Of a stretch of 64,000 bases of DNA, positions 866-60,866 are shown one piece after another. Source of the stretch: Verrucomicrobiota bacterium (lineage in GTDB: Bacteria; Verrucomicrobiota; Verrucomicrobiia; Limisphaerales; J093). The position numbers and the translations under genes are program-made. Every line of letters starts with the position of its first letter. Position 1 is the first letter of the stretch. The DNA lies in NCBI GenBank assembly GCA_029556615.1, contig JAKQDD010000211.1, forward strand, positions 1 through 64,000. The letters are read 5' to 3'. The notes under the pieces were generated by a model that worked only from the letters and a program-made list of their open reading frames with translations, was not told where the DNA came from and did not search any database.

Positions 866-900
866 CTCTATATCGACGATTGCCGTCGATATAGAGCTGA

Positions 901-1128
901 CTAGAAGCCGTAGAAGCGGATGTCCCGAAGCATCCGGCGGGGGAGCTGGTCAAGCGCATCGCAGGCCGCCAGCGGGTCACGCCGCGCGCGGTTGAGCTCG
1001 TGACGCTCGTGAGCTCGCCACTTGACCCAGGCGGCCTGCTTCATGCCGTGCTTGGTCTCGTTCTCCCAGGGGCAACGCAGCGAAGCGCGCACGGGGGGTG
1101 GGTTCTTCCGTCGATAGTTCTTGTGCAT
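901..1128 (-). CDS. hypothetical small basic protein
   Basis: 75-aa ORF with AAGGAGG 6 nt upstream of the ATG on the minus strand. Confidence 0.55.
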   Translation of the reverse strand: MHKNYRRKNPPPVRASLRCPWENETKHGMKQAAWVKWRAHERHELNRARRDPLAACDALDQLPRRMLRDIRFYGF

Positions 1129-1186
1129 GGGGTCCTCCTTGGCGGAGGGACCCCGGTGCTCGCGCGACAGCGGGCCATGAGGGATA

Positions 1187-2581
1187 CTAACCTGTCTGGC
1201 TCACGTGCCGGCGCAGCACGAACCGGATGATGCTGTTCACGTTGATGCGGTTCTTGCCCGCGTCGAGGGCCACGAGCTGACGGATGGTGATCTTGTCCTT
1301 GAACGGGTCCACCCCAGGCAGGTGCTGGGAGATCCACGCCATGGTCCCCTCCCGGCAGTTACCGACGGTGCGCGAGTCCTGGAAGGAGACCTCCCGGTCG
1401 AGGTCGGCCTCAAGGAGGTGCATGCCCGTCTGCCGGCTCGCCTCGGCGGCCGTGAGGGTGCGCGCCTGCTCTGCGAGCTCCGTGAGCCGCTGACGCGCCT
1501 CCTGTTCGGTCTCGCGCTCGCGGGCGCGCTTCGCCTGGGCGGCCTCGCGCTCCCGCTGGGTGCTGAGCGCGTCGAGCCGCTCCCGTCCCTTCTCCGTGAT
1601 GGCGAACCTGGCGAAGCTGCTGTGCTCGTCGTGAGGCTGCGGGACCACCAGGCCGTCCTTGGCCATCAGGCCAAGATCCTCGATGGTGTCCGGCTCTGAC
1701 CCCCGGTAGCCCCGGTGCGTGCCGAACGCCTCACCCCGAGCGGCGCGAGCGAGCGCGTCGTGCGTGCGGTACGCGATGCGCCGGACGACCAGCCCCTCGC
1801 GCTCCCCGTCCGCCCCCACGCGCACCTCCTCACCGACACCAAGCGCGGCGATCTCGACGATGCGCCCCCGGTACGCGTCGACGAGAGCCTTCCCCGCGTA
1901 CTCGCGCAGCGGGGGGTCGGATGTGGGGTTTTCGACCTCGTAAGTTCGACCCATCACCGCGATGCGCGCCTTCTCCCGCGCCACCAGCGTCGCGACGGGG
2001 ACCTTGATCCGGTGCTTGGACTCCGAACCGACATGGCGCGTCTGGCGACACGTCCGGCACTCGATGCTGTCCGAGTCGAAATGCCCGTCCTTCCGGTAGA
2101 GGAAGTTCACGTGGAGACCGTCCTTCGAGTAGCTCGACACCTCGCAGTGGCCTCCCAAGTTGCCCTCGCTCACCGCCTCGGGCAGGCGCACGCGTGCCCC
2201 CAGGTGGAGGATCTCGCCCTCCACCACCACCCGCTTGCGGTTGAGGACGCGCTCGAGCGCCGTGAGGACCGTGGCGTTCTTGCTGGAGGCCGCCAGCGTG
2301 TACCAGCGCTCCAACGTGCCCTCTCCAAGCCAGCAGGAGATCGAGAGGCCAGACTTCTCCTCGTCCGTGCGCGCGTATCGCTGATAGGACTTCATGGCCC
2401 GCGTGAGGTCGTCTGACTCCATGCGGATGTGCCCCACGATGACCGCCTGCATCGCGTGGTCGATCGCGTAGCCGCAGCGACGATTAGACGTGCGCGTCTG
2501 GTCGAGCGCATGCCGCAGGAAGGTGAGGGCCGGCGACAGACTGTAAGGTTTGTCAGGGGTCGAGGAGGAACGTGAGGCCAT
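1187..2581 (-). CDS. hypothetical protein (464 aa)
   Basis: Long ORF with protein-like composition. No P-loop or other motif recognised. Confidence 0.5.
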   Translation of the reverse strand: MASRSSSTPDKPYSLSPALTFLRHALDQTRTSNRRCGYAIDHAMQAVIVGHIRMESDDLTRAMKSYQRYARTDEEKSGLSISCWLGEGTLERWYTLAASSKNATVLTALERVLNRKRVVVEGEILHLGARVRLPEAVSEGNLGGHCEVSSYSKDGLHVNFLYRKDGHFDSDSIECRTCRQTRHVGSESKHRIKVPVATLVAREKARIAVMGRTYEVENPTSDPPLREYAGKALVDAYRGRIVEIAALGVGEEVRVGADGEREGLVVRRIAYRTHDALARAARGEAFGTHRGYRGSEPDTIEDLGLMAKDGLVVPQPHDEHSSFARFAITEKGRERLDALSTQREREAAQAKRARERETEQEARQRLTELAEQARTLTAAEASRQTGMHLLEADLDREVSFQDSRTVGNCREGTMAWISQHLPGVDPFKDKITIRQLVALDAGKNRINVNSIIRFVLRRHVSQTG

Positions 2582-2621
2582 GAAGCTAGGTCAACACACC
2601 GTCCTTCGACGGAGCTGAAGG

Positions 2622-3257
2622 CTAGTGGCCCGTGTTGGGGCTCGTCTGCGAGACGGCGTTCCCGCTCCACAACTGGCCTACTCCATGGTCGAAGCGCACG
2701 CGGTACCCAGTGCCGCTCATCTGGGGGACCTTCTTGACGGCGGGTCCTGCGAAGTGGTTGATGTCCGGCTTGACCTTGTCGTAGCCCTCATGGGACTCGA
2801 CGAGCTTCTGCTTGAGCGGGCGCACCTTGATCACCTTGTCGCCCACCTCGACCACCTGGAAGAAATCGGCGTTCGTCTGGTCGTACCCCCAGACGGTGTA
2901 GAGGACGTCTCCCACCTTGGCGGAGTGCTTCCACTCGCGCCGGGTCTGGAGCTCCTGCTGCTTGCGCTGGAGGTCCTCACGGCGAGACTTGATGGTGTCC
3001 TGCACGCGCCGCTCCCGCTGCTCCTCCGAGTTGAAGTAGTACCAGTAAAGGGGCTTGGCCGCGCGTCCCTGGTACACGAGGGCGGAGGGCTTGCCGCGCC
3101 GGTTGATGAACCGGTACACGACGAGGTCCGTCCCCTCAGGGGTCTCGGGGGTTACCTCCCGAGCCTCAGCGGGGAGATTGTGAGGGAGCACCTGCGCGCG
3201 CCGGCTTGCTAAGAGCCGGCTCACGACCTTTCTGTCCTGTGCGGAGAGCATCACCAA
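2622..3257 (-). CDS. hypothetical protein (211 aa)
   Basis: ORF in the co-directional block with an intergenic motif upstream (2603-2612). Confidence 0.5.
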   Translation of the reverse strand: MVMLSAQDRKVVSRLLASRRAQVLPHNLPAEAREVTPETPEGTDLVVYRFINRRGKPSALVYQGRAAKPLYWYYFNSEEQRERRVQDTIKSRREDLQRKQQELQTRREWKHSAKVGDVLYTVWGYDQTNADFFQVVEVGDKVIKVRPLKQKLVESHEGYDKVKPDINHFAGPAVKKVPQMSGTGYRVRFDHGVGQLWSGNAVSQTSPNTGH

Positions 3258-3260
3258 CGC

Positions 3261-59146: not shown

Positions 59147-59410
59147 TCACTGGACCACCAGGATGGGCTGACCACTCGGCCGGCGCTCCGTCGTCACGAC
59201 GAAGCGGCCCGACAGGAGGGCCATGAACCGGTTGAGGACGCGCCGACGACTGCGTGCAGACAGCATGGAGGTGCCGCCGTTCACGTCGACGAACGCCTTC
59301 TCGCGTCGCCCCTCCACTCCGGCGTACGAAACCGTGGGTTGTAGGGCTTGGGAAGTCGTGTGACCGCTCAAGGTGCTCAGGATTTGGGGCTTCAAGGATG
59401 AGTAGCGCAT
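59147..59410 (-). CDS. hypothetical protein
   Basis: ORF only. Confidence 0.35.
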   Translation of the reverse strand: MRYSSLKPQILSTLSGHTTSQALQPTVSYAGVEGRREKAFVDVNGGTSMLSARSRRRVLNRFMALLSGRFVVTTERRPSGQPILVVQ

Positions 59411-59443
59411 CGTTGTCTCCTGACTAGAGGTCGATGCGAGGGA

Positions 59444-59860
59444 TCACTTCGGAGCTGAGGTCTTCGCGTCGAGGTTCTTTTGCAGGATCTGCACGTCCGC
59501 GGCCCCTGCACCCACGTCGCGGGCCTGCTCGCGGGCCTGCTCCGCGAGCGCGTCCAGCAGGGCGGGGATGGCGGCGATCCCCCTCCGCAGGAGGTCTCCC
59601 CTAGTCTCTACGAGGAGCGTCGCGCGACGCGGAGCCCTGTCAGTCTCGACGACCAGGCGGAAACGCTTGTCCGTCTGTGGACGGAAAGCCAGCGTTCGGT
59701 GAACACCACAGGAGACCCTGCCCCACATGCCTGGGATCGTGGTGGCGATCGCGGCCTCCAGTGCGCCCAGCGAAGCCTCCAAGTCCTGGGTGGCCCGCTG
59801 GAGCTCGGCCGCGGCCTCTCGGGCCTCTCGAACGATCGTGGGGAGGTTCCTACTCGACAC
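59444..59860 (-). CDS. hypothetical protein
   Basis: ORF with motif variant 59451-59460 adjacent. Confidence 0.4.
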   Translation of the reverse strand: MSSRNLPTIVREAREAAAELQRATQDLEASLGALEAAIATTIPGMWGRVSCGVHRTLAFRPQTDKRFRLVVETDRAPRRATLLVETRGDLLRRGIAAIPALLDALAEQAREQARDVGAGAADVQILQKNLDAKTSAPK

Positions 59861-60308
59861 GGATCACCTTGGTCACCTCGCGCAGCATGTCGTTGAGGCG
59901 TCCGACCAAATGCTCCACCTGCGAGTAGATGATCATGCTCACTTGGTTGTCGTGGCGCAGGAACCACCGACGGTAAGCTGTGCGGACGGCCGTCACTCGC
60001 GCGAAGGGGCCACGCTGGCTGTCAGGGTGCTGGAGCGCCTGGTTGACCATCTGGTCCAGGACAGGACGGTCGCCAACGTACCCGCAGGCGACCGTGTCGA
60101 GGGCCGCCACAACGGCTTCCCCACGCTCCTGGAGGTCCTTGGGGGAGAGGAGGGAGACCGGAAGAGGATCCTCCAAGGTCTCAACGACGCGGCCCTCTTC
60201 GCTGAGGAGGAGCGCGTTGCGGTGCGCCAGGAGGTTCGCGACGATCGCGGCCGTACGGTCGTCCTTGGCCTCGAACGAGAAGGGCAGGTAGAGGGCGTAT
60301 CGTGGCAT
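59850..60308 (-). CDS. hypothetical protein
   Basis: ORF with motif variant 60338-60347 upstream. Confidence 0.45.
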   Translation of the reverse strand: MPRYALYLPFSFEAKDDRTAAIVANLLAHRNALLLSEEGRVVETLEDPLPVSLLSPKDLQERGEAVVAALDTVACGYVGDRPVLDQMVNQALQHPDSQRGPFARVTAVRTAYRRWFLRHDNQVSMIIYSQVEHLVGRLNDMLREVTKVIRVE

Positions 60309-60311
60309 GCC

Positions 60312-60866
60312 CTAGACACCTGGAACCGCACGGAGGCGGAGCTGTACGTGCGAGGCCGCAGCCCGCACCTCCTCCCTCACGCGCGCGAGGTGGTCCGGGT
60401 CGTTCCACTTTCGGTTCCGCCCACTGGGGTGCCCTACGAGCAGCACGCGGTCCGTGCTCGCGGAGAGCTTGGCGGCTGCCGCGACCCGCTTCCCCACGAG
60501 GACCACGAGGTCGAAGCGGTCCACCCACAGGGGGAGCCAGAGAGCCGCGGCTCGTCGCGCGAGCTCCGCGTCCCACCACCCGCAGGGGCCGGGCGGCAGG
60601 AGGTCCGCTGAATCGGACCACCGCACCCCGCAGCGTATGAGCCGAGCGCGGCCGGTTCCAAGACGAAAGGCCCCGAACCTTCGCGTGAGGTCGTCCGACC
60701 TCAGCCAGTGGTCGTGGACCACCTGCGGGACGCGGCGGTGCCCCACGTTGATCGCCTCCCCCACGAGGATCACCCGCAGTCCAGCCCACGGTGCGCACCC
60801 GTCGGGGTCGCGCGCACAGCAGTCCGGAGAGCTCCCCCACCCGTTCCTATAGTCTACGCAGGGCAC
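60312..60866 (-). CDS. UDG-superfamily-like protein (tentative)
   Basis: VILVGEAIN and LLVGHPSGRNRKWND resemble UDG motif A (GEAPG) and motif B (HPSxxNxxxW). Confidence 0.35.
   Translation of the reverse strand: MPCVDYRNGWGSSPDCCARDPDGCAPWAGLRVILVGEAINVGHRRVPQVVHDHWLRSDDLTRRFGAFRLGTGRARLIRCGVRWSDSADLLPPGPCGWWDAELARRAAALWLPLWVDRFDLVVLVGKRVAAAAKLSASTDRVLLVGHPSGRNRKWNDPDHLARVREEVRAAASHVQLRLRAVPGV

Follow-up and report, generated by a model that had tools for sequence, protein, structure and literature searches.

In a stretch of 64,000 nucleotides (nt) from contig JAKQDD010000211.1, deposited under the Verrucomicrobiota assembly GCA_029556615.1 and called the window throughout (66% GC; about 91 genes and 81% coding in a gene map based on codon usage), a short asymmetric element stands ahead of many genes, and we consider it likely that this element is a bipartite promoter, specific to one phage lineage, that gives rise to leaderless mRNAs. 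The full element consists of (T/A)CAGCTCC, a 16-nt information-free spacer, TCGAC(T), 7 nt, a pyrimidine and ATG. With the A of the ATG numbered +1, the hexamer CAGCTC occupies -36..-31, (T/A)CAGCTCC -37..-30 and TCGAC(T) -13..-8, the gap between CAGCTC and TCGAC being 17 nt. An earlier note on this DNA had recognised the upstream half as an intergenic motif and had overlooked the second box, TCGAC, and the fixed distance to the ATG. In the mechanism that we propose, the TCAGCTCC-type motif would act as a -35-like box, followed by the freely varying 16-nt spacer, by TCGAC(T) as a -10-like box and by the pyrimidine at -1; transcription would start on the A of the ATG, and most genes with an element would yield leaderless mRNAs whose 5'-terminal AUG is translated without a Shine-Dalgarno (SD) sequence, while a minority of copies would use the same start point and then carry a leader of 11-25 nt with an SD. 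The element would be read by a multisubunit RNA polymerase together with an alternative sigma-like specificity factor, and this factor is probably encoded by the phage because both boxes change together in a sister lineage. It is from the architecture of the element, its statistics, co-orientation and conservation that we infer initiation by RNA polymerase, leaderless mRNAs and the nature of this factor.

The existence of a multi-copy motif, as the earlier note had it, was borne out by the counts. The sequence GGAGCTGAC occurs in 15 exact copies against 1.22 ± 1.05 expected from dinucleotide shuffles, a 16-mer with up to 3 mismatches in 12 copies against 0.54 expected, and scanning with a position weight matrix (PWM) built on the full-length element, its ATG columns masked, recovered 27 sites where Markov shuffles gave about 1.6; 21 of these 27 still have an ATG at +30 (distances so written are the nucleotides that separate CAGCTC from the later feature); the enrichment over shuffles is 12- to 20-fold. 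When all 6-mers were screened without bias at all fixed distances from ATG, CAGCTC at +30 ranked first by a wide margin. An ATG lies at +30 in 30 of the 68 CAGCTC hexamers and a start at +29 or +31 in 5 more, against about 0.6 expected by an estimate from composition; among the 32 TCAGCTC sites, ATG is found at exactly +30 in 20 and CGAC at exactly +18 in 15. The ATG starts of 20 element genes had been picked by codon score alone, before the motif entered gene calling. Where 25 or more copies had been claimed, always co-oriented with the downstream gene, the window holds 41, all of them in that orientation, with an ATG at +30 in 29, at +29, +31 or +32 in six, and with a leader containing an SD in the remaining six; about 43% of the genes of the window have a copy of their own. 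The other 27 CAGCTC hexamers are mostly intragenic and without the flanking consensus, and they agree with the roughly 44 estimated for both strands from base composition alone. All positions listed previously hold the core or a variant within 0-12 nt, but only 9 of the 21 plus-strand sites are the exact 9-mer, the others having GAGCTGA or GGAGCTGT (on the coding strand ACAGCTCC), and the list had missed about 12 copies (at 191, 6521, 29322, 32544, 36731, 38844, 41099, 49207, 50763, 57210, 58377 and 62516). The 41 copies are given here with their coordinates in the window and strand, L296 and L297 being syntenic contigs of relatives:

157..197 (-), TCAGCTCG; ATG at +31; gene extends past the left end of the window
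861..900 (-), TAG then TCAGCTCT..TCGATA..cATG; leaderless, ATG at +30
2579..2618 (-), TCAGCTCC..TTGACC..cATG; +30; gene 1187-2581; orthologous copies in L296 and L297
3819..3858 (-), TCAGCTCC..TCGACC..cATG; +30; orthologues found
6488..6527 (-), hybrid of ACAGCTCC and a GGTAGGAT (TANNNT-type) downstream box; +30; NfeD-like gene; hybrid kept in L296 and L297
8243..8282 (-), ACAGCTCC..CCGACC..cATG; +30; NAPRTase gene
8925..8975 (-), leadered; TAG then ACAGCTCC; predicted +1, GGAGG SD, ATG at 8927
9321..9360 (-), TAG then TCAGCTCCGATCC..TCTACT..cATG; +30; orthologues with boxes kept and spacer diverged
10078..10128 (-), leadered; predicted +1 is the A of AGGAGACCCCGATG; conserved in L296 and L297
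11222..11262 (-), TCAGCTCCGATCC..CCGATC; ATG at +31
12060..12099 (-), TAG then TCAGCTCT..GCGACT..cATG; +30; orthologue found
12934..12973 (-), ACAGCTCC..TCAACT..cATG; +30; 2OG-Fe(II) oxygenase gene
13291..13330 (-), TAG then TCAGCTCC..TCGACC..tATG; +30
14659..14698 (-), divergent junction; ACAGCTCG..GGGTATGG..cATG; +30; interleaved with the copy at 14678..14717
14678..14717 (+), divergent junction; ACAGCTCT..GGGTAGGT..cATG; +30; PTH2 gene
15115..15154 (+), TCAGCTCC..TCGACA..cATG; +30
17309..17348 (-), TCAGCTCCGATCC..TCGACA..cATG; +30
18213..18252 (-), TCAGCTCCGATCC..GCGACC..cATG; +30
20298..20351 (-), leadered; TAG then TCAGCTCG; predicted +1 A, AAGGAG SD, ATG at 20300
23219..23260 (-), TCAGCTCC; ATG at +32; helicase gene
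24117..24157 (-), weak copy, TCAGCTCG; ATG at +31
28501..28540 (+), TAG then TCAGCTCC..TCGACT..tATG; +30
29321..29360 (+), variant, GCAGCTCC..TTGACC..cATG; +30
30487..30542 (-), leadered; predicted +1 A, AAGGAG SD, ATG at 30489
31926..31965 (-), TAG then TCAGCTCC..GCGCCC..tATG; +30; HD-domain gene
32488..32550 (-), leadered; TCAGCTCT..TCGACT, 22-nt leader, CAGGAG SD, ATG at 32490
36282..36321 (-), divergent junction; TCAGCTCC..TCGACT..cATG; +30
36326..36365 (+), divergent junction; TCAGCTCC..CCAACA..cATG; +30; open reading frame (ORF) 36363-36884
36730..36769 (+), variant, ACAGCTCC..AAGACA..tATG; +30
38800..38839 (-), top score (37.8 bits); TAGTCAGCTCC..TCGACT..tATG; TAG here not a stop codon
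38843..38882 (+), divergent partner of 38800..38839; TCAGCTCT..GCTCCT..cATG; +30
39594..39633 (+), near-consensus; TAG then TCAGCTCCGATC..TCGACT..cATG; +30
41098..41137 (+), doubtful; within the 3' end of a methylase gene; ATG at +30 opens only a 48-codon ORF
47490..47529 (+), TAG then TCAGCTCC..ACGACG..cATG; +30
49206..49245 (+), TCAGCTCC..CCGAGT..cATG; +30
50762..50801 (+), TCAGCTCC..CCGACT..cATG; +30; 66-codon ORF 50799-50999
57209..57248 (+), variant, ACAGCTCT..GCTACT..cATG; +30
58343..58383 (-), variant, ACAGCTCC; ATG at +31
59408..59458 (-), leadered; TCAGCTCC..TCGACC; predicted +1 is the A of AGGAGACAACGATG
60306..60345 (-), variant, ACAGCTCC..cATG; +30
62484..62522 (-), variant, ACAGCTCC; ATG at +29

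Column statistics were taken from 57 non-redundant sites of this genome chosen only by WCAGCTC-N30-ATG, and at the columns outside this selection the consensus base was found at C-30 in 45 sites, T-13 in 27, C-12 in 45, G-11 in 42, A-10 in 50, C-9 in 42 and T-8 in 29. Each of the spacer columns -28..-14 holds at most 0.36 bit, and less than 0.15 bit with the exception of -27, and the columns -40..-38 hold only about 0.2 bit each. The element has, in other words, the two blocks with a non-conserved spacer of 16-18 bp that characterise recognition by the sigma-70 family, with TCGACT and its best-conserved A at -10 departing from the housekeeping consensus, TTGACA / TATAAT or TANNNT. At -1 a pyrimidine stands in every one of the 57 sites (C in 49, T in 8), compared with 34 of 62 other genes (Fisher p = 3e-10), and bacterial transcription starts are usually marked by such a pyrimidine followed by a purine at +1; the end of the -10 block, the purine start and this pyrimidine fit together if the A of the ATG is +1. 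The geometry thus predicts a start about 30 nt after the core, on the A of the ATG, and not 7-10 nt after the motif as had been suggested, and the 20-35 nt formerly given between the end of the element and the start codon are replaced by the fixed distances listed above. An SD-like tetramer precedes 2 of 29 motif genes against 22 of 62 others, and the start codons at +29..+31 are ATG in 34 of 35 cases, with one GTG that is probably spurious, whereas the other genes use ATG 37, GTG 19 and TTG 6 times. Leadered copies, nine in this genome, have an SD and an ATG beginning at the predicted +1 or no more than about 20 nt from it, and this +1 is a purine in seven (two examples are AGGAGACCCCGATG and AAAGGAGCCTGCTCATG). 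Some copies (861-900, 2579-2618; L010 2211) have a short inverted repeat inside the spacer, such as tatatcgacg..cgtcgatata at 870-893, which is not general; such repeats, lying within the promoter, may serve as terminators or regulator sites.

The position of the element relative to its neighbours is equally constrained. In 17 of 20 cases the gap to a co-directional upstream gene spans 36-42 nt, most often 37 nt, and because such a gap is essentially just the element, the upstream stop codon often adjoins the -35 box. A TAG directly adjoins the box in 12 copies, as the earlier note had seen when it described a fusion with the stop codon, and this is an abutment and no recognition sequence: we rejected TAG as part of the motif, since it is the stop of the upstream gene in 11 of the 12, TAG is the commonest stop in the window and the columns -40..-38 are weak. 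The lead of TAG among the stop codons of the 91 called genes (TAG 50, TGA 30, TAA 11) is in itself unusual at 66% GC. The palindromes reported at two divergent junctions were found again (14678-14698 and 36315-36332), together with a third at 38833-38849, and they are back-to-back divergent copies without an upstream ORF. At 14661 and 14715 the two starts are only 54 bp apart because the two divergent copies are interleaved. The -35 boxes of divergent pairs take the form GGAGCTG-N2-6-CAGCTCC, which is also seen in L296 (15884/15887, 18270/18273 and 20229/20232) and in L007.

Judging from the contigs that share its proteins, the window is part of an uncultivated huge tailed phage of at least 331 kb. 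Proteins identical to those of the window were found on metagenome contigs from JGI, ENA and Logan, including the ENA contig ERZ27257442 k141_840356 (331,503 bp), in which the right part of the window lies at 29-49 kb. Among viral contigs, just three, all from IMG/VR, had several exact copies of the element; they encode Baseplate_J, a tail protein, a family-A DNA polymerase, a CCA-adding enzyme and others, and this DNA polymerase was located at 289-312 kb on the ENA contig. Because DNA polymerase and the right part of the window share this contig, the element is genome-wide in a single phage of at least 331 kb, and on the 331.5-kb contig it also stands upstream of structural and replication genes. 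The closest relative in GenBank, LR745208.1 (485 kb, uncultured), has 31% identity in the baseplate protein, and a screen of fixed-distance words showed the motif to be absent from it. Searches of GenBank phages by megablast (with 12 kb) and by tblastn (with the Band_7 and helicase proteins) gave no useful relative, nor did the NAPRTase and the AAA protein of the window have relatives in IMG/VR. Among the matches listed by a metagenome-wide pattern scan, most were single chance matches, with neither a second multi-copy lineage nor a host genome.

Conservation in relatives follows the boxes. Homologues of the phage-specific gene 1187-2581, with 75% and 67% protein identity, lie on the syntenic contigs L297 and L296, respectively, where the element is present at orthologous intergenic positions and an ATG follows at +30 in 20 of 35 CAGCTC hexamers of L296 (within 21 kb) and in 9 of 24 of L297. 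Between orthologous pairs, identity amounts to 0.8-1.0 at -36..-29 and at -13..-10 and to 0.4-0.7 in the spacer, and the distance to the ATG is kept. A more distant relative, L301 (Logan SRR13208895_63120; 60% GC), whose PolA is 56% identical, lacks CAGCTC at +30; the highest-ranking fixed-distance word in this contig is CAGATC, likewise at +30, which belongs to a sister element, TCAGATCC-N16-(G/C)CATC-N7/8-ATG, with eight sites in which the geometry is unchanged and both boxes have changed (for example, 215(-), 1322(+), 2281(-), 6579(-), 6773(-) and 6976(+)). In L302, with a PolA 48% identical, no clear fixed-distance motif was seen. A joint change of the boxes under constant geometry would be expected of a co-evolving specificity factor, and a different host sigma factor would also explain it.

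Of the functions that the earlier note had offered, a phage-specific promoter is thus the one supported by the second box, the 30-nt phasing, the invariable pyrimidine at -1, the SD of leadered copies and the conservation of the boxes. Several points weigh against this reading. We screened the proteins of the window, its flanks and contigs of the same genome (about 250 proteins in about 240 kb of non-redundant sequence, at least about 110 kb of the 331.5-kb contig lying outside this set) with Pfam and PHROGs, and found no domain of the sigma-70 family (Sigma70_r2, r3, r4) or of RNA polymerase; the factor may also be supplied by the host. Moreover, the -10-like box TCGACT does not fit the TANNNT of primary sigma factors, the -35 box is far more informative than the -10 box and would also fit an activator site, and the start site is a predicted one. 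In favour of the reading, other signals were lacking: a consensus scan of 1-20 kb gave no canonical sigma-70 promoter, and terminators numbered 5 against 5.6 expected, with no association with the element. Outside the window the same genome contains large ORFs of 2068, >1177, 955 and 909 aa (L199 2094-8300; L208 1-3531, 5432-8299 and 8842-11571) with essentially no Pfam or PHROG match, apart from a weak match of the 2068-aa ORF to a tail protein; these may be virion proteins, yet they are also the best remaining places to look for a divergent RNA polymerase or specificity factor. As a more speculative proposal, which we hold to be possible but doubtful, this clade of huge phages, with a family-A polymerase and no recognisable sigma factor or RNA polymerase, would encode a promoter-specificity factor of an undescribed kind, either a very divergent minimal sigma or a non-sigma protein, that co-evolves with the boxes (TCAGCTCC/CGAC versus TCAGATCC/CATC) and drives the leaderless expression, gene by gene, of nearly half the genome.

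The box could instead be the site of a phage DNA-binding regulator, whether a repressor that blocks elongation in the manner of stoperators, which the earlier note had offered, or a class-II activator that replaces the -35 contact, as MotA of T4 does. The asymmetry, number and co-orientation of the copies and their frequent position beside stop codons recall Cluster A stoperators, and the greater information content of the -35-like box and the lack of a sigma gene in the sequence screened point the same way, as do three copies in which CAGCTC is paired with a TANNNT-type box, a combination fitting an activator that works with the primary sigma. Yet the 30-nt phasing to the ATG, the second box at -13..-8 and the pyrimidine at -1 are unexpected of an elongation block, stoperators are not known to be phased to start codons, and no repressor of the Cluster A type was found. 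The recommended search for an RNA polymerase gene yielded none in about 240 kb, and the clear repressor-like genes with a helix-turn-helix (HTH), both of Xre type, are confined to 41526-42059 and 42502-42981 in a mobile, lower-GC island bearing an insertion sequence (IS). The activator model overlaps with the promoter that we propose, because it still leaves the element as part of a promoter. We regard a regulator site as improbable, and a stoperator-type repressor site is not supported as the primary function.

Less probable still, and very unlikely in our view, is an element that acts in the RNA, either through endonuclease processing of polycistronic transcripts into leaderless mRNAs, the other function named in the earlier note, or as a signal for translation, standby or re-initiation situated 30 nt ahead of the AUG. 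The fixed distance to the AUG and the absence of an SD would suit such a signal, and an upstream stop 37 nt from the next start falls within the range scanned by ribosomes after termination. But folding revealed no conserved structure (mean minimum free energy z of -0.08 over 56 elements, with only 7% below -2), two boxes around a 16-nt information-free spacer are typical of DNA recognition by sigma factors, and by inspection the box shows no complementarity to the 3' end of 16S rRNA. Ribosome binding does not require the box, given that leadered copies have an SD of their own further downstream, and because copies also persist at divergent junctions, where there is no upstream ORF or transcript, a processing or termination-reinitiation signal is unlikely. 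A last explanation is that the pattern arose by chance or as an artefact, either of base composition or of the codons in C-terminal peptides that end at TAG. In its favour, CAGCTC is itself rich in GC, as is the DNA (66% GC), and 27 of its occurrences look like the background estimated from composition; nevertheless, the excess over shuffles, the intergenic position 3' of the stop codon, the exact phasing to ATG and the conservation in diverged relatives refute this explanation, whose probability we take to be negligible.

Besides the element, a smaller class of starts was observed, in which GGGTAnnn (often TANNNT) ends 5-7 nt before an ATG or GTG without an SD. Of 78 GGGTA sites, 16 have a start codon at +9/+10 against about 3 estimated by chance, and the class comprises the starts at 6490(-), 11528(-), 13937(-), 14661(-), 14715(+), 17613(-), 24573(+), 32624(+), 33202(+) and 53084(+), perhaps also those at 27979(+) and 40281(+). 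Three copies in the window join a GGTA/TANNNT-type box to CAGCTC, and the hybrid is conserved in relatives. This class resembles a primary-sigma-type -10 box with a leaderless start and is possibly an early class read by the host sigma. Two of the ORFs that it precedes, 32624-33172 and 33202-33861, are of the size of sigma factors and were rejected as such, having no similarity to PDB, Pfam or PHROG entries.

Other features of the window deserve mention. ARAGORN predicts a single tRNA, a tRNA-Ile with the unusual anticodon AAT (27840-27915, plus strand). The unusual auxiliary genes include a Band_7/NfeD pair, NAPRTase, an archaeal-type peptidyl-tRNA hydrolase (PTH2), an HD_4 (RelA/SpoT-like) domain, a DnaJ-domain protein, two RlaP nucleotidyltransferases and GroEL just past the right end of the window (window coordinates 3863-8245, 14715-15113, 31149-31928, 33864-34871 and 51017-53058; L022 1-1590). 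The helicase gene (20963-23221) contains an in-frame tandem array (21001-21364 in the window; L001 16287-17697) with a period of 210 nt and 6.7 copies in L001, whose copy number varies among samples, the protein having 752 aa in the window, 1032 in L002 and 1102 in L001. Judging from the coordinates, the start of the 331-kb ENA contig appears to lie near this array. The lower-GC island (59-61%, about 41200-47000) carries, along with the two Xre-type HTH genes, an IS-type transposase (45241-46125). To the left of the window lies a comparable 6-kb island, also with HTH genes and with a DDE transposase (L026 12400-18600 versus L028), its orientation being opposite between samples, and because of these opposite orientations the IS-bearing island looks active. 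The IS transposase is 96% identical only to a 1.7-kb contig binned to a metagenome-assembled genome of Armatimonadota, which is too weak a link for naming a host.

If the promoter that we propose is correct, these results would allow the transcription of this uncultivated phage, which has at least 331 kb and occurs in several public metagenome samples, to be mapped precisely and its start codons to be corrected. The genome would be extremely compact, the intergenic gap being the promoter, with no 5' untranslated region and about 43% of genes under a promoter of their own. The variant promoters of the sister lineage offer a handle for finding the factor through covariation of candidate proteins with the boxes, and the element can flag contigs of the lineage and improve the calling of leaderless genes without SD, which standard gene callers mis-start.

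Among the closest known systems are the promoters read by alternative sigma factors in phages, such as the middle and late promoters of SPO1 (gp28 and gp33/34), and those of extracytoplasmic function (ECF) sigma factors, which also have two short boxes about 17 bp apart at -35/-10, many copies per phage genome and a consensus unrelated to TTGACA/TATAAT. Within the -10 region, CGAC is reminiscent of the CGAC/CGTC cores of some ECF promoters, whereas the -35 box lacks their typical AAC core, and to our knowledge TCAGCTCC / TCGACT matches no known alternative-sigma consensus. The present system further differs in that no sigma gene was found in the proteins screened and that in about 85% of copies the predicted transcription start falls on the start codon. 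Promoters of the AR9 and phiKZ RNA polymerases are single short motifs near the start and are not known to be bipartite, and a T7-like promoter, which is one contiguous conserved block of about 20 bp across the start, is at odds with a bipartite element whose spacer is free of information, no RNA_pol (PF00940-type) match being present among the screened proteins. Stoperators, to which the immunity repressor binds, are single sites of 13-14 bp that often lie in short intergenic gaps beside stop codons and are not known to have a partner box or a set spacing to the next start codon. In Cluster A mycobacteriophages they are asymmetric sites, tens per genome, mainly in one orientation relative to transcription (PMC6550527, PMC9283540). 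The 41 co-oriented copies share with them the shortness, asymmetry, orientation and closeness to stop codons, but have two boxes, an exact phasing to ATG, a pyrimidine at -1 and no repressor, and the sequences are unrelated.

The start-associated sequences (SAS) of Cluster K mycobacteriophages are 13-bp repeats located 3-7 bp before the start and containing an AGGAG SD core (PMC3203893); they are likewise asymmetric, start-linked, in one orientation, with a strong preference for ATG, and conserved across subclusters ahead of unrelated genes, whereas the box described here lies 30 nt upstream of genes that mostly have no SD (2 of 29 with one). In the leaderless units of Actinobacteria and other phyla, the promoter is the TANNNT of the host primary sigma (PMC4633059, PMC3160421). 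Here too about 7 nt separate the end of a -10-type box from an ATG that would be the start of both transcription and translation, with no SD, but TANNNT marks only the minor GGGTAnnn class and the main class has another -10 box and a strong -35 box. Jumbo phages have been divided into a group 1 with multisubunit RNA polymerases of their own, a group 2 with phage sigma factors and a group 3 with neither (PMC7824862). With no RNA polymerase or sigma factor in the roughly 240 kb screened, the phage resembles group 3, and it differs in its family-A DNA polymerase and its dense non-canonical promoters, which would imply a specificity factor, not known from group 3, in phages without a recognisable sigma factor or RNA polymerase. 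Phage-specific promoters are already known, and what would set this one apart is its density, its exact fit to the gaps between genes and its predicted leaderless output.

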